Positions 3,207-55,589 are shown, counted from the first letter of the stretch. The stretch is DNA of 64,000 bases from Candidatus Bathyarchaeota archaeon (GCA_963780185.1 CAWABA010000011.1:192001-256000), one strand, 5' to 3'. Numbers and translations are program-made. The notes: a model not told the origin generated them from the sequence alone.

Positions 3207-4230
3207 ATGCCGCAAGTAATAGAGTGGACAAGTTCGCAGGCAAACGCGGACGAAATAGTTTACAGATGGGGACAAGCAGGACAACAAGCAGGAACAAACG
3301 CCTCAGAAGCTATTACATGGGGAGCGCAGCTCATCGTTCATGAATACGAGATAGCTGTATTCTTCAGAGACGGCAAGGTCTACGATGTTTTCGGCCCTGG
3401 AAGACATACTTTAACTACGCTGAATTTGCCTTTGCTCACGGGTGCATTAACGCGGCTCGCCGGCTACGGCAATAGACAAACCTTTCACGTCGATGGTCAT
3501 CTACGTCAGCACCAAAGTTTTCAACGGCAAATGGGGTACAAGCGCGCAGACAACAGAGTTAGCCCCGCTGAAAGTCTTCGGACAGTTCCTGTTCAAAATT
3601 GACGATGCCACGTTGTTCGTCACCGAAGTTGTGGGTGGACAAAGTCTCTTCGACACAAACGGCGTCAACGACTTCCTACGAGGATTCCTGAATGAAAAGA
3701 TAATCGCGGAACTATCGCACTACGACTTAATCACTGTCTTCACACGGCTGCAGGAAACGTCGGTGATTGTTAAGACGTCAGTTGCAGACTACTTCAAACG
3801 CTTAGGCATCGAACTAACAGACCTGCGATTCGAAGGCATCGACACAACCCCAGAGTACCGTGAACGACTCTTCTGGCTAAAAACCGGCAGCACCCCAGCC
3901 GACACTGTCCTACGTATGGAAACCGTGAAGAGCGCAGCAGCGTCTCTGGGTCAAGGCGGCGGTGGAGGCGGCGCAGGCTTAGGCACAGGCATGGTGCTTA
4001 TACCGCAAATCATGAATTCCGCAGGACAAGTTCAAGCTCAAGCACCCACAGCAGCCCTCGTGATATGCCCCAAATGCGGCGCCCACGTCCCAGCGACATC
4101 AAAGTTCTGTCCCGAATGCGGAACCTCACTTACACCTCCTTCGCAAGCAACAATCACCTGCCCCAAATGCGGACACTCGATTCCAGCAGGATCCAAATTC
4201 TGCCCTGAATGCGGCGCAACAATTTCGTAG
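3207..4230 (+). CDS. SPFH/Band-7 (YdjI/COG4260-like) protein with two C-terminal double zinc ribbons; frameshift near 3478
   Basis: QLIVHEYEIAVFFRDGK..FGPGRHTL and KWGT motifs, 2x CPKCG..KFCPECG; removing one A from caaacct joins ORFs 3207 and 3493. Confidence 0.85.
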
Positions 4231-8444: not shown

Positions 8445-10065
8445 ATGAGTAAAGCGGCGGACATGGGCAAAGTCTCGGTGAAAGGTAGTTTCCATGTTAT
8501 GTGGGGGCTGCTTGCTTCAACAGTCATTTCTGCAGTCGGCGCAGTGATTTTAGCGGGGGTTCTGGGAGCAAGCAACTATGGCTTATACGCCATCACGTTG
8601 TCTGCGCCATCTTTAATCAGCTTATTTCATGATTTAGGAATAAACTACGCGGTTACCCGCTACTCCGCTCAGCTTAAAGCAGATGACAAGGCGGAGCAAA
8701 TAAGAGGAATCATACTTTCAGGGTTCATCTTCAAGATTCTTTTCGGGCTGGCGCTTTCAGTGATTTGCCTGCTGCTTGCGCCCTTCTTGGCCACAACACT
8801 TTTCCATCGCCCCTACCTCACAGCGCTAATTCGAGACGTCTCGTTTATCATCTTGGCTCAGTCTTTAGTCGCTACTGCAACCGCCGCTTTCACAGGCGTC
8901 GAGCAAATGCATGTTAACAGCCTTATGATTGTGTCCCAAGCCATCGTCAAGACTGTTCTTGCGCCGGCGTTGGTGCTGATTGGATTAGGGTTATATGGCG
9001 CAATCGTAGGCTACTCTGTTTCCTACTTTGCTACGGTGTTAATTGGGTTACTGCTGGTTTGGACAATATACAAAAGCCTGCCCAGTTTGCCCTCAAACAA
9101 ACTGGACTTCACCCGCAACATCAAACTGATGCTTCGCTTCGGGTTGCCGCTGGGCCTTAGCGACATTTTGGGGGGTTTCTTAATGCAGTTTTACTCGTTT
9201 ATCCTCGCCATTTACGTGGCAAACAACGCGCTCATCGGAAACTTTAGCTTAGCCTCAAACTTCGTGATTATAGTAACCTTTGTTGCTACACCCATAAACA
9301 CGATGCTTTTCCCAGCCTTCTCCAAAATTGACTGCAAAAACGACAATGCAACGTTGAAAAAAGTTTTTCAATCATCCGTCAAATATACGACGTTGCTGAC
9401 CATACCTATTGTAGGGATGCTGATAGCGCTTAGCAAACCCGGCGTCTCAACACTTTTCGCTAACCACTACGCACAAGCCCCCTTTTATTCTAGGTTTGCT
9501 TGCCCTCAACTACGTGTTCTTAGCGTTTGGAATGTACAGCACAACCAACCTGATTAACACCCAAGACCGCGCATCCATCAAAATCTTGCTTGCCGTGATG
9601 ACGTTGGCTGTCGGTTTGCCGTTAGGTTTCGTTTTGATTTCGCATTATGGTGTAGTGGGTATGTTGGTTACGTTGATTTTTGATGGGACGCCAAGTGTTG
9701 TTATTGGATTGGTTTTTGTTAAGAAACAATATAACCTGACCATCGATTGGTTAGCTTCAGGAAAAATACTTTTTTCGTCGTCGGCGGCTGGTTTGTTTTC
9801 ATATTTAGTTGTTAAATTGCCCGTTGCCAGCGTCATCCAACTGGTAATCGGCATTCCTCTTTTCTTGTTAACCTTTGTAGCGATGATAATTTTAACCCGA
9901 ACGTTGAGCCCAATGGACATGTCAAACTTTCATATGATAACTAGCGATTTGGCACCGCTTGCTAAAATTGTGAACCCCCTTTTGGATCTCCTGGAAAAAA
10001 TTGATAACGCAGTTAACCACCGGGAAAATAAGGTCGTCGTACTGGACGCTAAACTGCGTTCTTAA
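8445..10065 (+). CDS. Oligosaccharide flippase (Wzx/MOP family); frameshift near 9485
   Basis: Multi-TM; LGASNYGLY, DLGINYAVTRY, MLFPAFSK; two overlapping ORFs joined by removing one base. Confidence 0.85.
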
Positions 10066-12118: not shown

Positions 12119-12583
12119 CTAGTGGTTATGTTTCTCTGAAACCCAGTATTCGTCGGCGGCGCCTTTTTTGTTGACTACGCGTTCTTTTTTGAAGATTGGT
12201 GCTTCGCTTTTGTATCTCTCAACGGCTTCTCGCAAAACCGTGAACACTTCTGGTCGATGGGAGCCAGCAACCGCAACGTAAACCAAGTCGTCTCCAACGT
12301 TGAATTCGCCCAGTAAATGGTGAATTTGAACGTTAACTATGCCGGGTTTCTTGGTTAAGTCATCGCATATTTTGCCGAGAACTTGGTCGGCTTTTTCTTC
12401 GTAAGCTTCAAGATGCAGCTTCTCAACCTTTTGGCCTTCAACCGTGTCGCCTCGCACTACCCCGATGAAAAGCCCTATCGCGCCCGCTTTAGGGTAGTTC
12501 GGATCCTTTTTGATGTTGTCAATAGCATCTTGGACGGTGAAGCTTCCTTTCTGGTGGACTCCTGCTTTTGCCGACAAATACAA
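12119..12583 (-). CDS. moaE: Molybdopterin synthase catalytic subunit
   Basis: GAIGLFIGVVR, LEAYEE, GSHR, APIFKKE. Confidence 0.92.
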   Translation of the reverse strand: MYLSAKAGVHQKGSFTVQDAIDNIKKDPNYPKAGAIGLFIGVVRGDTVEGQKVEKLHLEAYEEKADQVLGKICDDLTKKPGIVNVQIHHLLGEFNVGDDLVYVAVAGSHRPEVFTVLREAVERYKSEAPIFKKERVVNKKGAADEYWVSEKHNH

Positions 12584-12668
12584 CGCTCCCTAGTGTTGGT
12601 TTGAAAGTTTCTAGAATGATGTTTCTAAAGAATTTTGCCCTAAGAAGGGGCTTTGAAAATAAGGATAG

Positions 12669-30978: not shown

Positions 30979-32484
30979 CTAGAATGGCTGGCTTATTTCA
31001 ACTTTATGTTGCGCTTTCCATTCTTTGAGTGGAACGCCAAGTTTCTTTTCAACTTCGGCTCTGTGGATGGAGTTCATGGTGCAGAAAGGAATGATGCGTC
31101 CGTCTGGTACGGCGTAGTGGATTAGGCAGCGTTGCACTCTTTCAAGGTCAAAGTTGTAGGGATCCATGAAATGCATGGCTGAAAGCAGAATAGATTTCCT
31201 TTGCAGATCACCCAGCGTTTTATAGTTACCCTTCGTCATTACTGGAAGAACCATACGCATGGTACCGAATTTTAAGTGGCGTGCAGTGCCTAGCAAAGAT
31301 AGGTATGCTCTTGTTTTGTGTCCGCTGGACGCTTTCGCGTAAACATCTCTCATGCCAGCGAAAAATGCGTCAACGTTCGCCATGTCCGCGATAGTCTTGA
31401 CTTTGCCTTTGTCGATCATCAGGTATGTTGCCATGCCGCAGTGCGGGTGCGCCGTGAACTCTAAGTATCTTCTGCCTTTTAGTGCGCCAACTGCTTTTGA
31501 CACTATTGCAACTGAAGGCACTGGGTAGAAGTCGGAGGTTTTAATCATGCCTTTGGTTTGTTCTTCAACTGCCTTCATGAAGTCTGGGATTGTGATGCGC
31601 ATTTTTTCACGTTCGGTTTGGGGTAAACGTCCGCAGAGACTTACGGGTTGAACGTTGATGCATCTTATGACATCGAAGTTCTTGACTGCGAAGTTCACGA
31701 TGTCCCCAAGTTGATGGTCGTTGACACCTTTAACCAGTGTGACCACCAACACAATGCTGTCGAATCCTGCTGCTCGAAGGTTCTCGATTGCCTTCATCTT
31801 TATGTCAAGCAGGTCTACTCCTCGGATAAACTTGAAAACATCAGAGGTTAAGCCGTCAAACTGCAGGTAAATGGTGCTTACGCCTGCTTCTTTGAGCTCC
31901 TTAGCGTATTCAACGCTTTGCGAGATTCGAAGACCGTTCGTATTAACTTCGACATGGCTGAAGCCAAGCTCTTTTGCTTTTCGAATAAATTCGGGCAGTT
32001 CCTTACGTATTGTAGGTTCTCCGCCTGAGAACTGAAGCGCCGTGGCTGGCACTGGCTTGTTGGCCCTCAGGTTCTCGAGCATTCCAATGATTTGCTCTTT
32101 GGTTGGTTCGTAAACGTAGCCTGCGGCTGCGGCGTTAGCGAAGCAGACTGGACAGGTTAGGTTGCATCTGTTTGTGACGTCGATTATTGCGAGCGCCGTG
32201 TGAGATTTGTGTTCGGGGCAGATGCCGCAGTCGTTTGGGCATCCGTTCTTTTTCTCGGTTCGGGGGTTAGCCATGCCTTCGCCGTCGAAACGGAATTTTT
32301 CTGCCCGCACGTATTGGTCGTAGTCTGACCAGTAAAGTTCTTGGAAATGCCCATGTTCAGGGCAATCTTTTTTGATGAAGACTTTGCCGTCGTCTTCGTA
32401 AATGGTTGCGTCAATAGCTTTTAGGCATTCGGGGCAGATGCTTCTTGTCGGTTTGATGTCTTTCATACTTTTGCCTTCTAACAT
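30979..32484 (-). CDS. tes: Radical SAM tetraether lipid synthase (Tes/GDGT-MAS family)
   Basis: CPEC..CPEHG, CPNDCGICPEH, CNLTCPVC radical SAM motif, HPHCG, FMDPYNFD..RC.IHY, IIPFC. Confidence 0.88.
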   Translation of the reverse strand: MLEGKSMKDIKPTRSICPECLKAIDATIYEDDGKVFIKKDCPEHGHFQELYWSDYDQYVRAEKFRFDGEGMANPRTEKKNGCPNDCGICPEHKSHTALAIIDVTNRCNLTCPVCFANAAAAGYVYEPTKEQIIGMLENLRANKPVPATALQFSGGEPTIRKELPEFIRKAKELGFSHVEVNTNGLRISQSVEYAKELKEAGVSTIYLQFDGLTSDVFKFIRGVDLLDIKMKAIENLRAAGFDSIVLVVTLVKGVNDHQLGDIVNFAVKNFDVIRCINVQPVSLCGRLPQTEREKMRITIPDFMKAVEEQTKGMIKTSDFYPVPSVAIVSKAVGALKGRRYLEFTAHPHCGMATYLMIDKGKVKTIADMANVDAFFAGMRDVYAKASSGHKTRAYLSLLGTARHLKFGTMRMVLPVMTKGNYKTLGDLQRKSILLSAMHFMDPYNFDLERVQRCLIHYAVPDGRIIPFCTMNSIHRAEVEKKLGVPLKEWKAQHKVEISQPF

Positions 32485-35667: not shown

Positions 35668-35952
35668 ATGGTGCTAACCATAAAATTCGTCGGCGCAATG
35701 CGCCACATCACAGGCAAAACCCAACTAACCGTCAACTACGAAAAAGAAATGTCGCTAAAAGAGTTGCTTGCGAGAATCAGCCAGGAAACGCCGAAGCTGG
35801 AAAAATCCTTGAGCGACCAGCAAATGGCCGATTCGACTTCTAACGCTTTGATACTGGTCAACGGGAGGGAAATCAGTGTTCTTAACGGTTTAGAAACCAA
35901 GTTAAGTGATGGAGACGAAATCGTTTTTGTTCCCGTTGTGCATGGAGGTTGA
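35668..35952 (+). CDS. MoaD/ThiS/SAMP ubiquitin-like protein
   Basis: ILVNGREI, DGDEIVFVPVVHGG with C-terminal GG. Confidence 0.92.
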   Translation: MVLTIKFVGAMRHITGKTQLTVNYEKEMSLKELLARISQETPKLEKSLSDQQMADSTSNALILVNGREISVLNGLETKLSDGDEIVFVPVVHGG

Positions 35953-35956
35953 GCTT

Positions 35957-36736
35957 ATGATTACTTTGACCAGCGATTTTGGGCTCAAAGACCCTTACGT
36001 GGCTGAGATGAAAGGTGTAATTTTAACCATAAATCCCAACGCCGCGCTAGTTGACGTTACGCATCAAATCGAAAAATTCAACGTGCGCGCCGCAGCTTTC
36101 ACGTTGGCGTCTGCAGCACCGTACTTTCCCGATGGCACCGTTCACTTGGCAGTTGTGGACCCTGAAGTCGGCACAGACAGACGCGCCGTAGTGATGCAGA
36201 CGGAAAAAGCCTTCTTTGTCGGGCCTGACAACGGCGTTTTGGCTCTAGCAGCCCAACGCCAAGGCATCCAACACACCTACCAGCTGACGAACCCGAAGTT
36301 CACGATGCCTAAAGTTTCCAGCACCTTTCACGGCAGAGATATTTTTGCACCCGCAGCCGCATACTTATCGAAAGGCGTTGAACCTTCAGAGTTTGGACCA
36401 GAAATAAAAGATCCCGTCTCTCCATCATTTGCCCAAGTAAAATTAAGCAGTGGCTCGATAATCGGGGAAGTCTTAGGCGTAGACGGCTTCGGCAACGTAA
36501 TCACGAACATAACTCAGAAGGATGCAGCAGGCATGGAAGGGAAAACCGTCAATGTGGAAATCGCCGATGCCACGCTGGAAATCCCGTTTAGAAAAGCGTA
36601 CGCCCAAGCAAAAGCCAAAGGACCCGTTCTCTTGGTTGGTAGCCATGGTTTCTTGGAAATCGCACTGAACCAAGCAAGCGCCGCCGAAAAATTCCGCCTA
36701 AACGTTGGCGACAAAATCAAAGTCGCGGTTGCCTAA
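35957..36736 (+). CDS. SAM hydroxide adenosyltransferase (DUF62; fluorinase/chlorinase-like)
   Basis: ITLTSDFG, VVDPEVG, GPDNG, STFHGRDIFAP, DGFGN. Confidence 0.93.
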   Translation: MITLTSDFGLKDPYVAEMKGVILTINPNAALVDVTHQIEKFNVRAAAFTLASAAPYFPDGTVHLAVVDPEVGTDRRAVVMQTEKAFFVGPDNGVLALAAQRQGIQHTYQLTNPKFTMPKVSSTFHGRDIFAPAAAYLSKGVEPSEFGPEIKDPVSPSFAQVKLSSGSIIGEVLGVDGFGNVITNITQKDAAGMEGKTVNVEIADATLEIPFRKAYAQAKAKGPVLLVGSHGFLEIALNQASAAEKFRLNVGDKIKVAVA

Positions 36737-43215: not shown

Positions 43216-44532
43216 TTGAGGACTGGAATCTTCGGCGGGGGGCTAACGGGATTAACGTTGAGTTACCTGTTAAACCAAAAAGGCATCGACGTCGAGATTC
43301 TGGAGAAGGAGCCTGAACTGGGAGGATTAATGAGGACCCTAAGAGAAGATGGGTTTACTTTTGATTGGGGCGGCTCCCATATTATTTTCTCGAAAAACAA
43401 AGACGCACTGAGTTTTATCTTAAACCTTCTCGGCGAAAACAAAATCTGCAAAAAACGAAACACAAAGATTCTCTACAATTGTTCGTACGTTAAATACCCG
43501 TTTGAGAATGGGTTGGCGGATTTGCCTAAGCAAGACAATTTTGATTGCCTCTTCTCTTTCATCGAAAACTTGCTTGCCAAAGAAAAGGGCGAGCTTAAAA
43601 AACCTGAAAACATGAAAGAATGGTTCTACTACACTTTCGGCAGGGGCATCGCCGAGAAATACCTTGTTCCATATAACCTGAAGATTTGGAAGCATCCGTT
43701 AGAGGATATGACTTTGGAGTGGGTGGAACGTGTCCCGAATCCTCCTGTTGCCGACGTCGTGAAGTCTTCTCTTGGCATAGAGACGGAAGGGTACACTCAT
43801 CAATCAAACTTTTACTATCCCCTCCGAGGCGGCATTCAAAGCGTAATTGAGTCGTTAGCCCGGCATGCTCAAGGAAACATAACTGCTGGTTTTGAAGTTA
43901 AAAAAGTCCGTAAAGAAGATGGCTGCTGGGTTGTCACGGACGGGAAACAGCAAAGAGTCTACGACAAAATCGTTTCCACGATGCCAATTCAAGACTTAGT
44001 TAAAGCAATGGATGCCCCAAAGCAAGTCAGAGCCGCCGCCAAAGATTTGAAGTTCAATTCCTTGGTCAGTGTGATGTTGGGATTGAATAATGCGAAGCTT
44101 AACGATCTATCTTGGCTGTACATTCCAGAAAAAACTTCGCTGCCGCACCGCGTAAGTTTTCCTTCCAACTATAGCCCTATGGGTGACGCCTGAAGGGAAA
44201 TCCTCGGTTCTTGCCGAAATAACCTGCAAAAAAGACGATGCCACATGGAAAATGAAAGATGAGGAAATCATAAGTCAGGTAATCGAAGATTTGCATCGGC
44301 TGGGCATAGTGGATAAGAAAACCGTTTGTTTCGCCAAAGCTAAACGTTCAACCTATGCTTACGTCCTGACTGACATGGAATATGAAGAGAACCTGAAAAC
44401 CATCAAAAAATACGTTAACGAAGCGGGGATTGATCTTCTTGGAAGGTTTTCAGAGTTCAAGTATCTGAACATGGATAACTTGCGTTGAGAACGCGCATGA
44501 ATTACATGAAGGAGAAGTTCAAAGACAGTTGA
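43216..44532 (+). CDS. FAD-dependent oxidoreductase (UDP-galactopyranose mutase/HemY-like); frameshifted
   Basis: GGGLTGL, FDWGGSHI, PYNLKIW, FYYPLRGG, GRFSEFKYLNMD; shifts near 44180 and 44480-44497. Confidence 0.8.
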
Positions 44533-44545
44533 CGGCGATGAGGCA

Positions 44546-46111
44546 GTGACGATTAAGCTAAGGATGGATGTGGATTACCCTTACCCGTCGAGGTCCAAAA
44601 GTTTCCTTTACGTTACCTTAGGAATCAAAAACAGGAAAGGCAATGGCTACCTCAAGAACGCCCGCATCATCGCCAAAATGATTAACGAGTCGCCTAAGGA
44701 TGTTAAGGCTTACTGGTTCTTCACGCCGTACACGATTCCAGACAAGAAACTGCTTGATTTGCTCAACCCCCGAACGACATGAAGTTGCGTTGCACATTGC
44801 GACGGACCCCTATCAGGGAATGGAAAATCCTTGAAAACGAAACCGACAGAACCGTAAAGTACTACACCATCCACGGGACTTCGCGGCTTTTTGCCCAGCT
44901 TATTTGGGGACGAAAAATAGGCCAAAAACAAGCCACGATACCTCCTGATTTTCCCTTGAAATGTTTCCAAGACGAACAGGAATTCAAAACGTTCAGCATG
45001 GACAGAATACGGTTTCAGGTGGGTTTTGAAAAAGGCAAAGCCGAAGTTGAGGCATGGATAAAACAGGGCTTCATCGTTTCGATGCATCCTGAGTGGCTGT
45101 TCAAGAAAGGGTCGGATAGAGGTCCCTTCTACGACGTACTTAAAGATCTTCTAGAGGCGGACAAGGACCTTGATGTTTTGCAGGTGAGAAAGAACGCCTT
45201 TGCCAATGTGGCGCGCTCCATCAAGGAGTACGAATTAGACAATGCTCCCTCCGAAGACTTCCTTGAAAAGCTCTCTGAACACGGCGTTGACGTCTTCACT
45301 TTTCTGGAGCGAAAATGGTGCTGCCCCAATCCCCAATCCGCCAGGCACCTGGGAAAAGAAACGAAGACAACGTCGCCTTGCTTGAAATAAAAGACTATGC
45401 CGGCTGGTGGAGCGACGTTGGAAAGAAAACGCGTAACATGGTTAAGAAGGCTGAGAAAAGCGGCATAAAAGTATCAGTCGCGGAGCCAAGCGAGCAGTTC
45501 GCAGAAGGCATATCAAAAATCTACAATGAAACCCCCATCAGGCAAGGGACGAGCCTTTCCGCATTTTGGCGAACCGCTGGAAACGGTTGCTGGCAACATG
45601 TACGCAGGCGCCAAAAACTCCACCTTCATAGGAGCCTACCTCAACGAAGAACTCGTTGGCATTATCCAAATGGTGTACGGCGACAACATAGCCATCATCT
45701 CCCAGATACTCTCCATGCAGAAGCACTGGGACAAAGCAGTGAACAACGCACTTTTGGCCAAGGCGGTCGAAGTTTGCGTATCCAAAGGGCAGCGATGGCT
45801 CATGTACGGCAGAATCGGTAATCATCCCTCGCTGGACAGGTTTAAGGAAAGCAACGGCTTCGTCAGCTATCCGATAACGCGTTTCTATGTGCCTTTAACG
45901 TGGAAAGGCAGGGTCGCCGTTCACTTAGGTTTGCACAGAGGAGCTCAAAGATGCGTTGCCTCAGTCGCTGAAGGATAGGCTTATTCCAGTTATGAATTGG
46001 ATCAGCCGCAGCAGAACCCGACTGCGAAGCAAACCCGAAGTGAAATCTGAGGAATCGGATCAGCGAGCCAAACCCGAAGCGACAGACGAAACTGCTGAAG
46101 AGAAATCTTGA
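44546..46111 (+). CDS. Putative deacetylase-like plus GNAT/FemAB-like fusion protein; multiple frameshifts
   Basis: LRMDVD, HEVALH, IHG, MHPEW, then KKTRNMVKKAEKSG..SLDRFKESNGF spread over four overlapping ORFs. Confidence 0.6.
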
Positions 46112-48634: not shown

Positions 48635-48904
48635 TCAGAGCAGCATTGCCGCGAGGACTCGGTTTAGTTCTTCTCGGTTTTTGACGCCGCGGAAGATGGC
48701 TTTTCCGCTTGTGTAAAGTCGGAAAGAAAAGTCTTCGAATGTGAGCTCAAAAATTATCCCAGCGATTTTGTTGTTTACGGTGGCTTTCTTTAGGATGTTG
48801 GCGATGGCTTCATCTTTCTTTTCGTATTTAAAGAACACGATGACGTCTTTTTCAGCGCCGCATGTTCCCTCTACCCGTGCCACATAGTCGTCAAGAGTCG
48901 CCAT
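48635..48904 (-). CDS. Small single-Cys hypothetical protein, translationally coupled to sufS
   Basis: TAATG stop/start overlap; GTCG and FRLYTSGKAIFRG motifs. Confidence 0.75.
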   Translation of the reverse strand: MATLDDYVARVEGTCGAEKDVIVFFKYEKKDEAIANILKKATVNNKIAGIIFELTFEDFSFRLYTSGKAIFRGVKNREELNRVLAAMLL

Positions 48905-50135
48905 TATAGTCCCTCAATCTCCTTGAGCACCTCAACGAAACGGTCAATTTCTTCTCGTGTATTGTAAATATAGAAGCTCGCTCTCGCGGAGGAATGAAGT
49001 TTGAGGATTTCTTGGTGCAGGGGCTGGGCGCAGTGGTAGCCGCTTCTTATCATTATGCCGTAGTTGTCGCAGATGAGGGCAACATCATGTGAGGATAAGC
49101 CTTCAATGCTGAATGATATGATGCCGCATCTTTTCGTGAGGTCGCTGGAGCCATGAATCGTGACTTTTCTGCATTCCCCCATGCGTTCAAACGCGTATCT
49201 GGTTAGATCTTTCTCGTGGCTTACAACGTTATCCATCCCAACAGCTTCCAGGTACTTCACGGCTTCGCCTAAGCCGATTGCGCCGCAGATGTTAGGGGTT
49301 CCTGCTTCAAACTTCCACGGCAACTCATTTAAAGTTATGCTGCATCCGCCCTGCGGCTAAACTCCACTTCTTTAATCATTTCGCCCCCACCTTCGAACGG
49401 CGGCATCGCTTCAAGCAAAGCCTTTTTGCCGTAAAACACGCCGATTCCCGTGGGTCCAAGCATTTTGTGACCTGAAAAAGCCAGAAAATCCATATCCAAA
49501 TCCTGAACGTCAACAGTCAAGTGTGGCATAGACTGGGCACCGTCTACAAGCATTAACGAGCCGTTGTCGTGGGCTGCCTTCGTGATGCGTTTAACGTCAT
49601 TGATTACTCCCGTGACGTTTGAAACTTGGCTTAAACAGGCGATTTTAGTTTTTTTGGAGAATTTAGCTTCGAAATCTTCATAGTCCAGGGTTCCGTCGGC
49701 TTTGACGTTGGCGTATTTGACGGTGAACCCTCTGAGTTTGGCGGTGATTTCCCAGGGCACAATGTTACTGTGGTGTTCCATCAGAGAAACCAGCACTTCA
49801 TCTCCTTTGCCAAGGTTGCTTAGCCCCCAAGAATATGCAACCAAGTTGATGGCTTCGGTTGTGCCTCTGACAAAAACAACCTCAGAGGATTCCTTTGCGT
49901 TTATGAATTTTGAGATTATTTCCCGCGACTTCTCGTATAGGTCAGTGGCTTCCGACGATAAGGTATGGACTGAGCGGTGGATGTTGGCGTTGTGGTTTTC
50001 GTAAAAGTCGATTTCAGCGTTTATCACTTGGCGGGGTTTCTGGGTGGTTGCGGCATTGTCAAAGTAGATCAAGGGGTAGTTGTTGACTTTGCGTTTGAGT
50101 ATCGGGAAATCCTGTCGAATCGCTTGTAAATCCAC
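48904..50135 (-). CDS. sufS: Group II cysteine desulfurase; frameshift near 49355
   Basis: YFDNAATTQKP, MEHHSN, DGAQS, SGHKM, FEAGTP, RSGYHCAQP, RASF. Confidence 0.92.
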
Positions 50136-50137
50136 GA

Positions 50138-50650
50138 TTACTTCTCTGCCTTCTCTTCTGTCTTAAGCCTTTTGGACAGCAACTTCGCCAGCTCTTCCTC
50201 TTCCAACGCCTGTTTTTCTTCAAACGTGTTTTCCGCAGGCATCCAGTTGGGAATTGCCACATTTCTCTGCTTAAAATACTGCCGTATCGCACGCTTCAAT
50301 GCGCCGACGGCGAGGACTCCGCAGTGGAATTTGACGCTGGGTAAACCGCCGATTTCCTCCGTGACTCTCTTCCAAGTAACGTCTTCCCATGCCTTTTCAA
50401 GACTTAAGCCCTTAATCATTTCCGTAACGATGCTGGATGTGGCGATGTTTGCGGCGCAGCCGTAGCTTTCAAAACTGGCTTTCTCGATGATGTCTTTGTC
50501 AGTTATTTTCAGGTAAAAGGTTATCATGTCACCGCAAGCTGGGTTCCCAGCCACGGCTACAACGGTGGCGTCATCCATTTTTCCAAGGTTCTTGGGGTTT
50601 CTAAATAAATCCATAACTTTCATGTTGTAAGGTAACGGTATACGCGACAT
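50138..50650 (-). CDS. iscU: IscU-type Fe-S scaffold with acidic C-terminal extension
   Basis: GNPACGD, YGCAA, LPSVKFHC. Confidence 0.92.
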   Translation of the reverse strand: MSRIPLPYNMKVMDLFRNPKNLGKMDDATVVAVAGNPACGDMITFYLKITDKDIIEKASFESYGCAANIATSSIVTEMIKGLSLEKAWEDVTWKRVTEEIGGLPSVKFHCGVLAVGALKRAIRQYFKQRNVAIPNWMPAENTFEEKQALEEEELAKLLSKRLKTEEKAEK

Positions 50651-51875
50651 CTAATCAACTCCTGTCGAGCCAACTATCCCCCGAATACGATTCACTGACG
50701 GCGGCAAAACCTTTAGGACGTAATCTATGTCTTCGGCTGATTGGTAACGCGTTGTTTTCATAAGGATGCTGCCGTGTGCTTCGCTGAATCTGCGTCCTAT
50801 GGCAACGAGAACGTGGCTTGGCTGAAGCAGTCTTCGGCTGCAGGCGCTGCCGCTGGAAACGTAGACACCTTTTAAGCTTAACTCAATTGTTAGTGCTTCG
50901 CCTTCTGCACGCAGGATGCTTATGTTTGCATTGTCTGGCGCTCGTTTGTCTCCTTTTGGACCGTTGAAGCGAAGGTCGTCGAGTTCTGCGAATATGCCGT
51001 CTACAAGTTTGTCGCGGAGCATACGCATTTTGGCGACGTTTGCGTCGAAGTTTTGGAATGCCAACTCGGAAGCCTTTGTGAAGCCGACGATTAGAGGGGT
51101 GTTTTCGACTCCTGGCCAAAGTTTCTGTGTGCCGATTTGTCCTTCAAGAATGCGTTCCATGTTTATTCCTTCTCGAAGGTACATGGCTCCCATTCCGCGT
51201 GGACCCAAAATCTTGTAGCTGCTAAGTGTCGCTAAGTCAACTTTTAAGTCTTGCACATTTAATGGTATTCTGCCATAGGCGTCGGAGGCGTCTGTGTGAA
51301 AGAGGGTTTCATGGTTTTTCGCTTTAACGATGTCAACTGCTTCCTTAATTGGCTGCACCGTGCCTATCTCGTTATTTACTGCTGAAATGCTTACAAGAAC
51401 GGTTTCGTTGTCAACTGCTTCTTTGAGCTTCTCAAGGTTGATGAAGCCTTCAGGGTTAACTGGGATATTCTGCATTGTGAACCCGAACTTCTGCATCATC
51501 TCCGCAACCTGCAAAACGTTGATAGGCTCTATTTCGGAGATGACTATTTTTTTGCCTATGGTTTTTCCGCGCGAAGCATGTACCCATGATTGCAAGGTTG
51601 TTTGCTTCTGTTTCGCCTGGCGTGAATGTGATGTCTTCGAGGTTTTTTGCGCCGATGGATTTGCTGATTTTCTGGAAGCAGTTCATTATGACTTCAAAGG
51701 CTTCCCAGCCTGGCTTGTGGGTAAGCGTCGGGTTACCGTAGGCTTTCTTGTTAAAGTAAGGCAACATCTCGTCAACGACTTCTTGGGGAACAATGCTTGA
51801 GTTTTCGTTGTCTAAGTAAACCTCGTGTGTTATGCCTTCATGCAACTTTAGGAGTTCCTTCACGTTTTCAACCAT
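50651..51875 (-). CDS. IscS/NifS-like protein with a degenerate active site; frameshift near 51563
   Basis: Group I fold motifs (YGNP, NNEIGT, SSGSACS), but many catalytic residues are substituted. Confidence 0.85.
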
Positions 51876-52023
51876 ACAGTATCCTACCAATCTAAAGGGG
51901 GTTAGATAACTCGTCACTTGCTAGTATCTAGTTCAAATAGAAAAACGTAGCTGAAAAAACATCAGCGGAGTCGCCAACACTATTAAACTAGCATATTCAA
52001 TAAACTGTTTGAATGGCGAGTTA

Positions 52024-54258
52024 ATGTTGAAGATTTCCGAGTTGCCCGTTCCAGACGAAGTAAAACAAATCCTGCAGAACATGGGAATCACTGAGCTTTT
52101 TCCGCCTCAGGAAGACACCATACGGGCAGGCGTGTTAGAAGGCCAAAACATCGTGTTAGCCAGCCCAACTGCGTCTGGAAAAACGTTGATTGCGGAACTC
52201 TGCGCACTCAAGCATGTGCTGGAAAAGAACGGAAAGGTAATCTATCTCTCGCCGCTCCGAGCCTTGGCAAGCGAGAAATTCGAGGAATTCGGAAAATACT
52301 CCTCTATAAAAAAGGCGAACGGCAGAAAAGTCTCGGTGGGAATCAGCACAGGCGACTTTGACACCGCCGACAACTGGCTTGAACGCTACGACGTAATAGT
52401 CACCACCAACGAGAAGGCTGATTCGCTTTTGCGTCACCGCGCCAAATGGATGGATGAAATCTCCCTTGTCATAGCCGACGAAGTTCACCTCCTCAATGAC
52501 GCAGGGCGTGGGCCAACCCTTGAAATCGTTTTAGCCCGGCTGCTGCAAGTTAACCCCGACATCCAAATCTTGGCACTGAGCGCCACCATAAACAACGTTG
52601 ACGAAATAGCAGGCTGGTTAAACGCCAAATTCATTGTCACGGAGTGGCGTCCAGTCAGCCTAAAGGAAGGCGTACTTCTGCATGATGAAATCCAATTCAA
52701 AGATGGCGGCTCAAGAAAAGTTGAGCACAAAACCCATATCCCAACAGTAAATCTCGTCTTAAACACGTTGAAGACTGGCGGCCAAGCCTTGGTTTTTGCT
52801 TCAACACGTAAAAACGCGGTTTCAGCCGCCAAAACAATTGCTCAGCACACGGGCGAAGTTTTGTCCAAACCCTTGAAGCGGTCGCTGGAGCATGAAGCTG
52901 AAAAAATCCTTTCTGCGGGTGAGCGAACCCAAATCAGCGACACTTTAGCCGAGCTTGTTCGATGCGGAACTGCTTTTCACCATGCAGGGTTAGCGGGCGC
53001 TCATCGCAAGATGATTGAGGATTCGTTTAAGGAAGGAAAAATCAAAGTTTTAACTGCAACTCCGACTTTGGCTTTCGGCGTAAACCTTCCCGCACGTACG
53101 GTTATCATTCAGGATTATCGTCGTTTTGAGGCAGGCTACGGCAACTACCCCATCAGCGTTTTGGAGTACAAGCAGATGGCGGGTAGGGCTGGACGACCAA
53201 AATACGACAAGGTAGGCGAATCGGTTCTTACCGCCAAAACCTCGGATGAAGCAGACTACCTGATGGAAGGCTACGTTTTAGCTAAGACCGAACGAATTTG
53301 GAGCAGGTTGGCGGTTGAAAAAATCATGCGCGGACACGTGCTGTCAACGGTCGCGTCAGATTTCGCTCATACAGAGAACGGGATTTACGAATTCTTCGGA
53401 AAAACATTCTATGCTTACCAATACGACGTTAAATCCATTAAGAGCATCATCGGCAAAATTTTGAAGTACCTCTACGAAGAGGAAATGATCGCTGTAGACG
53501 GAGACGAAATCTACGCTACAATGTTCGGCAAACGAGTAAGCGAACTCTACATTGACCCCCTGTCAGGCGTCGTCATCCGCGAAGCCTTCAAGAAAAAACC
53601 CGAAGAACCAACCGACTTCGGCCTGCTGCACCTGATTTCTCACATGCCTGACATGGGACCCGTCATGCGCCCCTACACACGGGAAATTGACCCGTTGGCG
53701 CTTGAGTTGGAGAAGCACCGCGACGAACTCTTCACTGAAGTCCCCAACGAGTGGGATGACCGTTTCGCTTTTGAAGAGTTTTTAGGCGAAATCAAAACCG
53801 CATTTGTGATGAAGAGTTGGGTTGAAGAAGTCAGTGAAGAAAACCTGATTCGACAATTCAACGTTCAGCCAGGCGATTTGTACCGCACGATTGAGAACGC
53901 AAAGTGGCTTCTTCACGCAACCGACGAATTAGCATCGTTGTTCGGATGCAAAGAGATTCGTCCCCTAACCAGCGAACTCGTAGAACGGGTTTCCAAAGGC
54001 ATAAAAAGAGAGCTGCTGCCGCTTGTTCGGCTTGAAGGCGTCGGCAGAGTCCGCGGACGCATAATGTTTGACGCAGGCTTCCAAACAATTGATGATGTAA
54101 AAGCTGCTTCAATGGAGGAATTAAGCAACCTGCCGCTTATGGGTCCCAGGCTTGCTAAAAAGATTAAAGAGCAGGTCGGCGGCTTCGTGAAAAAAGACAC
54201 ATGGGAAAAACTCAGCAACGAACAAGATTACAAGCAGCGCGCGCTATCTGAGTTTTAG
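52024..54258 (+). CDS. hel308: Ski2-like helicase Hel308/Hjm
   Basis: PTASGKT, DEVH, LSAT, FHHAGL, QMAGRAGRP, GRVRGR. Confidence 0.95.
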   Translation: MLKISELPVPDEVKQILQNMGITELFPPQEDTIRAGVLEGQNIVLASPTASGKTLIAELCALKHVLEKNGKVIYLSPLRALASEKFEEFGKYSSIKKANGRKVSVGISTGDFDTADNWLERYDVIVTTNEKADSLLRHRAKWMDEISLVIADEVHLLNDAGRGPTLEIVLARLLQVNPDIQILALSATINNVDEIAGWLNAKFIVTEWRPVSLKEGVLLHDEIQFKDGGSRKVEHKTHIPTVNLVLNTLKTGGQALVFASTRKNAVSAAKTIAQHTGEVLSKPLKRSLEHEAEKILSAGERTQISDTLAELVRCGTAFHHAGLAGAHRKMIEDSFKEGKIKVLTATPTLAFGVNLPARTVIIQDYRRFEAGYGNYPISVLEYKQMAGRAGRPKYDKVGESVLTAKTSDEADYLMEGYVLAKTERIWSRLAVEKIMRGHVLSTVASDFAHTENGIYEFFGKTFYAYQYDVKSIKSIIGKILKYLYEEEMIAVDGDEIYATMFGKRVSELYIDPLSGVVIREAFKKKPEEPTDFGLLHLISHMPDMGPVMRPYTREIDPLALELEKHRDELFTEVPNEWDDRFAFEEFLGEIKTAFVMKSWVEEVSEENLIRQFNVQPGDLYRTIENAKWLLHATDELASLFGCKEIRPLTSELVERVSKGIKRELLPLVRLEGVGRVRGRIMFDAGFQTIDDVKAASMEELSNLPLMGPRLAKKIKEQVGGFVKKDTWEKLSNEQDYKQRALSEF

Positions 54259-55589
54259 CTTTTCGCGAACTTTTCCGCCTGTTTAACTGCTGTGCCCAAA
54301 TAGTTCTTCGGGTTTAGCGCCTCGACGATTTCTGCTTCCGAAAGTTTGCCGCTTACGAATTTATCTTGCAGCAACATCTGTTTGAAATCTTTTTTCTCAG
54401 TTGCGCTTACAATCGTGAGTTTACGAAGCATCTCGTGGGCTTCCTGTCTATCGACGCCTTTCTTTGCTAACGCCATCATCACTGACTCCGACATCGCCCG
54501 CCCCTGGGTTATGCTCAGGTTCTGCAGCATCCGTTGCGGGTCAACTCGCAGGTTCGCGACGACATCACACATCAAACTAAGCATGTAGTCGAGCAGAATG
54601 TTTGTTTCTGGAAAAATGAACCGTTCAGCCGACGACTGCGTCAAATCTCTCTCATGCCACGTCACCATGTTTTCGAATGACGGGACAGTGAGGCTTCTGA
54701 CGATTCGCGCTAAACCGCAGATGCGTTCGCATGTTTCAGGGTTTTGCTTATGAGGCATAGTGGAGCTCCCAACCTGCTTGCTTGCTTCAAACGCCTCAGA
54801 AAGCTCGCCGATTTCGGGTCTTTGGAGCTCGCGGATTTCATTTGCAAAATTCTCAAGCGAAGAAGCAACGATCGCGTAGATGCATATTAGTTCAGCGTAG
54901 CGGTCTCTTTGAACAATCTGGGTTGAAATCTCAGCGGGGCGAAGACTTACCCGTTTCATGACGAGGTCTTGGATTTGCTCTGCATGTTCGCCTAAACCTG
55001 CTTGGGTGCCGACGGCGCCGCTTATTTTGCCGACTAAAACGCGGCTTTTGCACTCGCTTAATCGTTCGATGTGCCTGTCGACTTCGTAGCCCCAAACCGC
55101 AAACTTGAAACCCAAAGTAATCGGCAAAGCATGTTGCCCGTGGGTTCTGCCAATCATCACCGTTTCCTTATATTGACCAGCCTGTTTCTGCAGGGTCAAC
55201 TTCAAATCCAAAAGCCGCTTCTCGATAAGAACCATCGCATCTTTTAGTTGCAACGCGTTAGCCGTGTCAACTATGTCGTAGCTTGTCGCTCCCAAATGCA
55301 CGTAGCCGCCGCTTGACCCGCAAACCTCCGCTAGAGCCCGAACCAGCGCGGCGACATCATGTTTAATTTCCTTTTCAATAGCCTTCACGCGATCAACTTT
55401 AACGTATTTTGTGGAAGCCATGGCAGCGATTTTTTCCGCGTCTTTCCTTGGAATATTGCCTACTTCAGCGTGCGCCAAAGCCAAAGCGGCTTCAACGTCA
55501 AGAAGCTTCTGGACACGGGTTTCTTCTTGGAATATTTTAAGCATTTCTGGCGTGCCGTAGCGGCCAGTGTCTATGGGTAGGATTGGCAA
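54255..55589 (-). CDS. purB: Adenylosuccinate lyase
   Basis: KHD, HLGATS, GRTHGQHA, GSSTMPHKQNP. Confidence 0.96.
   Translation of the reverse strand: MPILPIDTGRYGTPEMLKIFQEETRVQKLLDVEAALALAHAEVGNIPRKDAEKIAAMASTKYVKVDRVKAIEKEIKHDVAALVRALAEVCGSSGGYVHLGATSYDIVDTANALQLKDAMVLIEKRLLDLKLTLQKQAGQYKETVMIGRTHGQHALPITLGFKFAVWGYEVDRHIERLSECKSRVLVGKISGAVGTQAGLGEHAEQIQDLVMKRVSLRPAEISTQIVQRDRYAELICIYAIVASSLENFANEIRELQRPEIGELSEAFEASKQVGSSTMPHKQNPETCERICGLARIVRSLTVPSFENMVTWHERDLTQSSAERFIFPETNILLDYMLSLMCDVVANLRVDPQRMLQNLSITQGRAMSESVMMALAKKGVDRQEAHEMLRKLTIVSATEKKDFKQMLLQDKFVSGKLSEAEIVEALNPKNYLGTAVKQAEKFAKS

Follow-up and report, generated by a model that had tools for sequence, protein, structure and literature searches.

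Why would an archaeal operon place an IscS-like protein with a rewritten active site next to an IscU-type scaffold and a second, type II cysteine desulfurase? The question is raised by four genes in a 64,000-nucleotide stretch of DNA from a Candidatus Bathyarchaeota archaeon (GCA_963780185.1 CAWABA010000011.1:192001-256000; hereafter the window, with positions counted from its first letter). They encode, in order, a degenerate IscS/MisS-like protein, for which we use the label MisS*, an IscU-type scaffold, SufS and a small protein of 89 amino acids (aa) (Table 1). Comparison with related archaeal loci leads us to a reading to which we assign a probability of roughly 0.55: SufS would make the persulfide, while a dead MisS* would dock IscU, relay sulfur or ligate the cluster. 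A preliminary description of the locus had proposed such a division of labour; the idea is plausible and is strengthened by the comparative data.

That description had also reported four co-directional minus-strand genes with junctions of 0, 2 and -1 nt, and the list of open reading frames (ORFs) and the raw sequence bear this out. MisS* starts with an ATG at 51875 and its stop codon ends at 50651, directly followed by the ATG of IscU. SufS starts with a GTG at 50135, 2 bases after the IscU stop, and the ATG of the small gene overlaps the TAA of SufS by 1 base.

The rewritten pocket of MisS*

Both pieces of the MisS* gene, which is interrupted in the window (see below), match Pfam PF00266 (Aminotran_5), and the best PDB matches of a MisS* orthologue are type I desulfurases. 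P0002, the orthologue used as query, matches Archaeoglobus fulgidus IscS (4eb5) at E 4e-79 and 270 bits, and 9wer, a 406-aa canonical-looking desulfurase, at 285 bits. All NCBIfam desulfurase models stay below their cut-offs for MisS* (NifS, 359.9 versus 530.75; IscS, 287 versus 548 and 643).

Residues were mapped in a MAFFT alignment with the annotated IscS of Escherichia coli MG1655 and five relatives. Relative to E. coli IscS, MisS* carries H104P, Q183D, H205Y, R240W, T243V and R354L. The motif changes originally listed by eye all hold in this alignment: TSGAT to TPGET, EH104 to EP, DATQ183 to DASD, GH205K206 to SYK, R240SGT243 to WPGV and SIR354F to SILM. Equally, the pyridoxal phosphate (PLP) lysine, the PLP-binding aspartate and the loop cysteine are kept as first noted, with T76, D180, K206 and SSGSAC328 all aligned; K221 and D195 of the window protein are IscS K206 and D180. 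The SGSAC motif of MisS* aligns with E. coli C328, and the long Cys loop of type I enzymes is present. In IscS, Arg354 anchors the substrate carboxylate, while Thr243 and His205 are ligands of the PLP phosphate. Part of the literature on the E. coli enzyme reports that H104Q and Q183E have no desulfurase activity, and that R354K, in which the charge is kept, is active (PMC9978102). Because the carboxylate-anchoring Arg and residues essential in E. coli IscS are replaced, we infer that MisS* no longer desulfurates cysteine.

These substitutions are not peculiar to the window. A locus scan covering a single genome for each GTDB species yielded 80 loci, of which L001-L045 are archaeal relatives with 46-100% identity to P0002 and L046-L080 are canonical IscS/NifS loci, mostly bacterial. 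Residues were counted in the 39 archaeal loci with a full-length, unsplit gene, leaving out L026, L029 and L045 (split) and L042, L043 and L044 (contig ends). Leu354 and Cys328 occur in 39/39, and Gln183 and Thr243 in 0/39; Trp240 is present in 38/39 and Asp183 in 37/39, and position 243 is Val, Ile, Leu or Ala throughout (39/39). Pro104 together with Tyr, Phe or Asn at position 205 marks 25/39 loci, all of the Bathyarchaeia-type branch. To the question raised at the outset, whether the substitutions are conserved in Bathyarchaeia, the answer is yes: the pattern is common to all 25 Bathyarchaeia-type loci examined. The remaining 14 keep His104 and, apart from L039 (Asp, Arg), also His205 and Lys206. 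Their titles name Desulfurococcales, Zestosphaera, Thermoproteota, Aigarchaeota, Nitrososphaeria, Sulfolobales, Methanomethyliaceae, Heimdallarchaeota, Methanomicrobiales, Thermoplasmata and others, labels that come from records of metagenome-assembled genomes (MAGs) and may be wrong. The full canonical set (H, Q, HK, R..T, R) is found in 35/35 of the canonical loci. Chance resemblance was rejected as an explanation, the signature being clade-wide and absent from all 35 canonical neighbours.

In a FastTree phylogeny (LG, 209 sequences), the set defined by W240 and L354 falls into one clade of 41 sequences that includes L039, with a support of 0.99 (FastTree SH-like values only); its sister sequence, P0125, is also degenerate. 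In a library of representatives at 50% identity, most of the 150 best matches are canonical. The nearest ones (P0122, P0123 and P0125-P0128) carry the degenerate signature, and in scattered others among the 150 the Lys or further residues were lost independently. By this alignment and tree, the losses at Q183, T243 and R354 greatly predate Bathyarchaeia and extend well beyond them.

The Heimdallarchaeota-labelled L039 has lost His205 and Lys206 (SSDR) as well as Arg240 and Gly242 (SPDV). Its Cys loop and the adjoining IscU gene are retained, and a TBP-like Cys protein is encoded upstream. From its position in the tree and its residues, it is a further step of degeneration inside the MisS* clade.

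Selection on the gene was estimated from pairwise NG86 comparisons of unsplit Bathyarchaeia-type loci, restricted to pairs with dS <2. Median dN/dS was 0.047 for MisS* (12 pairs), 0.049 for IscU, 0.084 for SufS, 0.158 for the small gene and 0.068 for the neighbouring adenylosuccinate lyase, values that are rough because dS is near saturation (~1.5). The dN/dS check suggested at the outset thus returns strong purifying selection on MisS*, and the name 'pseudo-IscS' used in the preliminary description is a misnomer, the gene being intact and under purifying selection in relatives. Among 20 diverse clade members, the best-conserved 15-residue stretch of MisS* is 331-345, ending in SGSAC, followed by 358-372 and then 314-328. 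In stretch 331-345 the commonest residue at each position has a mean frequency of 0.91 in the clade versus 0.76 in the 35 canonical sequences. The Cys loop being best conserved, selection has therefore acted hardest there, while the pocket that holds cofactor and substrate was rewritten.

The same data bear on the alternative that MisS* is still an enzyme, either a rewired desulfurase or a PLP enzyme with a different sulfur substrate, with SufS as a parallel source. Lys206 and Asp180 are kept in the window protein and in all clade members but L039, and the wider branch keeps His104 and His205 too, so that MisS* may still bind PLP or the pyridoxamine form, PMP, or perform altered PLP chemistry. 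Thr76, Ser203 and the catalytic Cys are likewise kept, purifying selection is as strong on MisS* as on IscU, and the same replacements recur throughout (Asp183, Trp240 and Leu354), as a new function would give. The universal Leu354 and the universal absence of Gln183 and Thr243 argue the other way, as do the inactivity of the E. coli mutants at positions 104 and 183, the loss of both Lys206 and His205 in L039 and NCBIfam scores far below the desulfurase cut-offs. We consider such an enzyme improbable, and the same goes for the substrates that it might use, namely protein-bound persulfide, thiosulfonate or a compound without an alpha-carboxylate.

In the window itself, two of the four genes are interrupted. 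MisS* is spread over two ORFs (51456-51917 and 50651-51595), and SufS over two ORFs in different frames (49335-50135, 266 aa; 48904-49323, 139 aa), so that the 'intact SufS' of the preliminary description is not borne out: the gene is split by a one-base deficit. In a DNA alignment, 7/7 orthologous loci are one base shorter than the window at cggAAAAAcc in MisS*, and skipping one base restores FARKTIGKKIVISEIEP, which matches FARKSMGKKIVISEIEP of an orthologue. SufS is one base short at GCAGGGCGGA-TGC, a G-rich stretch, in a DNA alignment with seven orthologous loci; its frameshift is bounded by a TAG in the downstream frame and a TAA in the upstream frame. Read through, MisS* (P0001) is a protein of 407 aa that is co-linear with unsplit orthologues at 87-93% identity; among the 120 best orthologue clusters, 118 share the length of 407 aa, and the other 2 have 420 aa.

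Are the two genes decaying pseudogenes in the host? Both are indeed interrupted in the sequence as given. Each interruption is a single-base indel, however, that of MisS* in or beside an A5 run and that of SufS at a G-rich stretch; no further stops or frame-breaking changes are present, and intact orthologues share 93% identity with the read-through. At least three unrelated genes of the window are split likewise. Band_7_1 profile positions 9-55 and 70-201 of the SPFH gene fall in successive ORFs, an amine-oxidase-like gene is likewise divided, and a single 504-aa ORF of locus L004 corresponds to at least three pieces in the window (44546-45978). The split unrelated genes lie at 3207-4230, 43216-44488 and 44546-45978, and possibly at 8445-10065. 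The window thus looks like an indel-prone assembly. Across the 45 archaeal loci, split operon genes are confined to one MAG series (isolate names that begin with 'MFD'; 5/7 contigs, versus 0/38 others). Because the indels are single-base, other window genes are split, orthologues are unsplit and splitting is limited to the MFD series, both frameshifts are most likely assembly errors, and genuine decay is very improbable.

Scaffold, SufS and the small protein

The scaffold has the motifs NPACGD, YGCAA and LPSVKFHC, which supply three Cys ligands, Asp and His. These motifs, and an IscU-length spacer between the second and third Cys (35-36 residues, as in bacterial IscU), recur in 44/44 clade rows (the window and 43 loci). 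An IscU scaffold is recognised by Cys37/Asp39, Cys63, His105-Cys106 and an LPPVK-like motif, and SufU by an insertion of 18-21 aa. The best NCBIfam model is NifU_clost/IscU; for the SufU model the score of 62 bits falls short of the cut-off (92.5). The scaffold is therefore IscU-type, as had been recognised: the ligand motifs are present and the SufU insertion is absent. IscU directly follows MisS* in 43/45 loci, and the contigs of the other two end inside MisS*.

SufS has type II features in both of its window pieces, notwithstanding the frameshift; these cover positions 2-257 and 264-399 of the Pfam/NCBIfam sufS profile. The intact orthologue of L004 has Bacillus subtilis SufS (5j8q; E 2e-135) as its best solved relative, and the catalytic HH, D..Q, SGHK and R.G.HC motifs and the C-terminal Arg are invariant in 28/28 SufS orthologues, the Cys loop being of the short HC(A)QP type. 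Its beta-hairpin, between GGGEMI and LPWKFEAG, deserves attention. In 21/21 SufS proteins from loci with the small gene, the hairpin is extended by 4-6 aa and carries a conserved Cys (the extension is 2-4 aa in L002, L004 and L042), and in 7/7 from loci that lack the small gene the hairpin has neither the extension nor the Cys. The SufS frameshift of the window falls in the hairpin insertion itself. According to part of the published work on E. coli, this 'beta-latch' hairpin contributes to the active site of the neighbouring monomer and positions SufE, and the hairpin region, which corresponds to the frataxin/CyaY site, is a hotspot of regulation (PMC10011822).

The small protein has Pfam matches only below the cut-off (TBP, E 0.005; DUF3378, E 0.007). 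Among 26 sequences, including the distant copies upstream of MisS* in L039 and L042, only Cys15, Gly67 and Leu84 are invariant. An AlphaFold2 model (pLDDT 92.2) consists of a strand-loop-strand unit with Cys15 on the loop, a helix, four strands and a helix. Foldseek found no match in the PDB at E<=0.001, and its nearest sensible matches, archaeal TBP (2z8u, TM 0.51) and the N-domain of RNase HIII (2d0a, TM 0.47), both have E >0.3. A half-TBP domain is arranged beta-alpha-beta4-alpha, and the fold of the small protein is tentatively predicted to be TBP-like alpha/beta. The family comprises 1,772 clusters, of which the best 120 are all 89 aa long; in the ESM Atlas it meets hypothetical Bathyarchaeota clusters only, plus one cluster with a 20% share of TBP Pfam annotation.

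An assignment of the small protein to TusA/SirA was tried and rejected: it has no Pfam TusA match, hhalign against a TusA-like family described below gave a probability of 0.6%, and neither TusA nor SirA is among the Foldseek matches listed. Public names for the family vary, being hypothetical at NCBI and 'ribonuclease HIII' or 'TBP' at JGI, apparent misnomers that stem from weak domain similarity (P0272-P0391). Near-identical archaeal-type sequences in records labelled Sulfotelmatobacter, Limnocylindrales and Verrucomicrobiae (L011, P0105 and P0338) probably reflect mis-binning.

With these components, the pathway that we favour would run as follows. SufS would form the persulfide on its buried active-site Cys and be the actual sulfur-mobilising enzyme; type II enzymes of this kind keep the persulfide buried and need a transpersulfurase. 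The small protein may take the persulfide on its loop Cys15, perhaps through the hairpin Cys of SufS, and is a candidate carrier from SufS to the MisS*-IscU complex; alternatively, IscU could take the acceptor role itself, in the manner of SufU. MisS* would serve as a structural partner of IscU, its mobile Cys345 loop accepting a persulfide in trans for transfer to IscU. Alternatively or additionally, Cys345 could bind the nascent [2Fe-2S] cluster as its fourth ligand, a role put forward for IscS of A. fulgidus and modelled on the (IscS-IscU)2 structure from that species (passages of PMC13066941 and PMC8918507).

Another route would have IscU accept the persulfide directly from SufS, MisS* stabilising or regulating IscU and the small protein being a regulator, an iron donor or a frataxin/IscX-like chaperone. 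iscU and sufS adjoin with a 2-nt gap, and B. subtilis SufS, the best solved relative, works with the IscU-like SufU (part of PMC8918507). SufU itself probably arose from a MisU ancestor, in the words of a section of a review (PMC13066941), and the hairpin region as a frataxin/CyaY-equivalent hotspot (PMC10011822, in part) would suit a regulator. The scaffold, however, is without SufU features (no insertion, His105 kept, SufU score below cut-off), the invariant Cys15 and Gly67 of the small protein suit a thiol function, and loci without SufS still hold the MisS*-IscU pair with a Cys carrier. Direct transfer therefore seems to us rather unlikely.

Sulfur carriers around the MisS*-IscU pair

SufS lies within the locus in 35/45 archaeal loci. 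The order MisS*-IscU-SufS-small gene is found in 22 Bathyarchaeia-type loci, and the contigs of L006, L009 and L019 end inside SufS or the small gene; the four-gene synteny is conserved in every Bathyarchaeia-type locus long enough to show the order. Elsewhere the placement of SufS varies. It is convergent and after the small gene in L020, divergent and before the small gene in L042, 0.2-1.6 kb downstream of IscU in L024, L025, L027, L028, L030 and L032, and upstream in L033 and L037.

Other carriers take the neighbouring positions in further lineages. A bona fide TusA gene (Pfam E ~1e-20) lies directly upstream of MisS* in L034, L035, L036 and L038, and in L034 and L038 it is preceded by a DsrE-like gene. 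In L024, L025, L027, L028, L030 and L032, IscU is followed by an ORF of ~80 aa with an invariant D..C...P motif. This family is weakly TusA-like (Pfam E 0.034 for one member; hhalign E 0.0016, in register), and the top Foldseek match of its predicted fold is SirA-like 3hz7 (E 8e-3, TM 0.61). The common theme is a MisS*-IscU pair amid sulfur-mobilising and sulfur-carrying proteins.

Several further genes recur nearby: PALP (cysteine-synthase family) genes, Cys-bearing HTH regulators and a ThiF-family gene, which is divergent in L036. In L033 and L037, an HTH_3 regulator with a Cys-rich C-terminal tail (PFC.IC) is encoded directly upstream of MisS*, with a PALP gene and SufS farther upstream; this regulator may sense sulfur or Fe-S.

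In the lineages with TusA or DsrE, those carriers would deliver the sulfur. Since MisS* probably cannot make persulfide, sulfur flow, if any, would run from carrier to hub, and the arrangement suggests that, as a general logic, small sulfur carriers feed a hub that is itself a dead desulfurase.

A different view is that the MisS*-IscU pair uses free sulfide, SufS and the small protein serving thiolated tRNA, molybdopterin or thiamine and being merely co-transcribed. The contigs bear Bathyarchaeia labels, and such organisms are typically anaerobes, which counts in its favour. So do the six well-flanked loci without SufS, and published passages that propose sulfide as the source for A. fulgidus IscS-IscU (PMC8918507) and, in a 2026 review, state its use for MIS and SMS (PMC13066941). 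Against it stand the tight coupling of the genes (0, 2 and -1 nt) in an order kept over the Bathyarchaeia-type set, the presence of SufS near the pair in varied arrangements in distant lineages (L024, L025, L027, L030, L032, L033, L037 and L042), and the TusA or DsrE genes that SufS-less loci usually carry, which point to protein-bound sulfur. We judge this explanation unlikely.

Several observations weigh against the division of labour between SufS and MisS*. No SufS is found in L023, L034, L035, L036, L038 and L039 within ~6 kb per flank; because six well-flanked loci are without it, SufS is not an obligatory neighbour. In the SufS tree, L042 lies outside the Bathyarchaeia clade, so the co-occurrence of hairpin Cys and small gene represents at most two lineages. 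Pfam, hhalign and Foldseek detect no kinship of the small protein with TusA, SufE or SufU, and no fused forms of it were found among 8,000 longer candidates, which is weak evidence. The retention of Lys206 and Asp180 and, in the wider branch, of His104 and His205, the roughness of the dN/dS values and the provenance of the contig labels count on the same side.

An extension of the favoured reading is tentative, with somewhat worse than even prospects: a lineage-wide split-function machine in TACK, Asgard and related archaea, in which a MisS* that has abandoned PLP chemistry would persist as persulfide relay and IscU docking hub and would receive sulfur from interchangeable feeds, in Bathyarchaeia SufS with a hitherto unrecognised TBP-fold transpersulfurase acting via the hairpin Cys, in other lineages carriers of the TusA/DsrE type, and which would be a living intermediate between MIS and SUF (SufS-SufU).

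SufBCD, SufE and SufU are absent from the operon and the 64 kb, as are HscAB/Fdx/IscA or other ISC genes beyond MisS*-IscU from the window. Its ThiS/Urm1-like and MoaE-like genes (Table 1) are further genes related to sulfur carriers. The helicase and adenylosuccinate lyase genes that diverge from the operon recur in most Bathyarchaeia-type loci long enough to show them. A sigma-70 promoter/terminator scan of the region gave nothing above shuffles, that model being inapplicable to archaea.

Table 1 Coordinates of the operon features, of other window genes and of genes at related loci
Feature	Sequence	Position	Strand	Remarks
IscS-like gene MisS*	Window	50651..51875	-	407 aa via frameshift read-through; Aminotran_5 fold, degenerate PLP/substrate pocket, type I Cys loop intact
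IscU/MisU-type scaffold	Window	50138..50650	-	170 aa; charged ~40-aa tail; Pfam NifU_N E 8e-38
Type II cysteine desulfurase SufS	Window	48904..50135	-	Split by 1-base deficit; orthologues 405-412 aa
89-aa small protein, uncharacterised family	Window	48635..48904	-	ORF; sub-cut-off TBP/DUF3378 matches
MisS* frameshift site	Window	51562..51566	-	A5 run (cggAAAAAcc), surplus base in or adjoining
SufS frameshift interval	Window	49338..49356	-	Inside Cys-bearing beta-hairpin extension
SufS beta-hairpin	Window	about 49300-49400		Between GGGEMI and LPWKFEAG
Divergent intergenic region, operon versus DEAD/Hel308-type helicase gene	Window	51876..52008	.	Presumed promoter region
Helicase gene	Window	52009-54258	+	Divergent from operon
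Helicase gene plus adenylosuccinate lyase	Window	52009-55589		Divergent from operon
ThiS/Urm1-like gene	Window	35668-35952		Overlaps start of SAM hydroxide adenosyltransferase gene (35906-36736); unlinked to operon
MoaE-like molybdopterin synthase subunit	Window	12122-12589		Unlinked to operon
Tetraether lipid synthase (Tes) radical SAM gene	Window	30982-32484		NCBIfam 654.6 versus cut-off 450; in keeping with an archaeal contig
MisS* gene with further losses	L039	6001-7188		Heimdallarchaeota label
TusA / DsrE-TusA stretch	L034	5291-5974		
TusA / DsrE-TusA stretch	L038	5298-5986		
TusA gene	L035	5690-5974		
TusA gene	L036	5622-5981		
TusA-like ORF	L024	7840-8106		
TusA-like ORF	L025	7727-8002		
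TusA-like ORF	L030	7712-7966		
TusA-like ORF	L032	7730-7972		
TusA-like ORF	L027	7634-8047		
TusA-like ORF	L028	2397-2717		
HTH_3 regulator with Cys-rich tail	L033	4967-5356		
HTH_3 regulator with Cys-rich tail	L037	5561-5932		

Relation to known sulfur-transfer systems

The closest precedents for an inactive IscS are found in A. fulgidus and Methanosarcina acetivorans. A. fulgidus IscS (AF0564; 4eb5, 4hvk) is described, in section 10 of PMC8918507 and in a part of PMC13066941, as inactive and as donating a Cys ligand to the cluster on IscU, a proposed role as structural partner and cluster ligand that resembles the one suggested here; M. acetivorans IscS1 is likewise without the Lys (PMC7585200, in part). 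Both share with MisS* the type I IscS fold, an IscU-type scaffold and the retained Cys loop (passages of PMC8918507 and PMC7585200). The comparison with A. fulgidus drawn in the preliminary description was apt: the Lys is lost there (Asp199) and kept in the window MisS*. Whereas the A. fulgidus and M. acetivorans proteins lose the PLP Lys and are otherwise described as IscS-like, the MisS* clade keeps it in 38/39 and replaces Gln183, Arg240, Thr243 and Arg354 instead, with His104 and His205 also replaced in Bathyarchaeia; furthermore, the cited passages describe no adjoining SufS, TusA or small Cys protein for the former. The PDB bit scores give no sign of a special relatedness of MisS* to AF0564 (270 versus 285 bits). 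Because the Lys is kept and different residues are lost, we have not filed MisS* as a member of the A. fulgidus family.

As an archaeal pair of IscS-like and IscU-like proteins without HscAB, Fdx or IscA, MisS*-IscU matches MIS (MisS-MisU) in gene content, going by parts of PMC13066941, PMC12442378 and PMC12192291. MIS is described with an active desulfurase in the passages concerned (PMC12192291, PMC13066941). The MisS of the present clade differs in having no desulfurase pocket and in being attached to a type II SufS, to small carriers or to both, and its residue pattern argues against MisS* being the MIS cysteine desulfurase.

SufS, for its part, is alike to that of the SufS-SufU pair of B. 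subtilis (5xt5) and the SufS-SufE pair of E. coli in being a canonical type II enzyme with a beta-latch hairpin that needs a Cys-loop acceptor, and in B. subtilis SufS is also encoded beside an IscU-family protein. Here, by contrast, the operon neighbour is a true IscU type, the hairpin is extended and bears a Cys, and the candidate acceptor has a TBP-like predicted fold.

The DsrE-TusA sulfur relay is itself a known system. E. coli IscS is a hub that binds TusA and IscU near its Cys328 loop (PMC2854127, in part), and the related loci that place TusA, in two cases also a DsrE-like gene, upstream of MisS*-IscU bring together the same partners of that loop. The difference is that in E. coli sulfur flows from an active IscS to TusA or IscU.

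What emerges is possibly an inactive IscS partner inside an MIS-like system, with a sulfur-carrier fold that may be new. In the parts of the literature reached by full-text searches we found no description of this substitution set or of its linkage to SufS, TusA or the TBP-like protein; Garcia et al. 2022, which defines MIS, and its supplements lay outside these searches and may already note the losses.

The minimal MIS has been described as a desulfurase plus a scaffold, and passages of two accounts call the sulfur route to archaeal scaffolds open (PMC13066941, PMC12192291). If MisS* proteins of a large archaeal clade are indeed catalytically dead while strongly conserved, calls of 'cysteine desulfurase present' made from the genomes of these lineages on the strength of MisS* would be wrong, and the oddity of A. 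fulgidus would become one case of a recurrent solution reached through other substitutions. The operon would also offer a tractable four-protein system for following persulfide transfer between a type II desulfurase and IscU by way of a candidate new transpersulfurase fold, and it bears on the possible origin of SufS-SufU-type systems from MisS-MisU.

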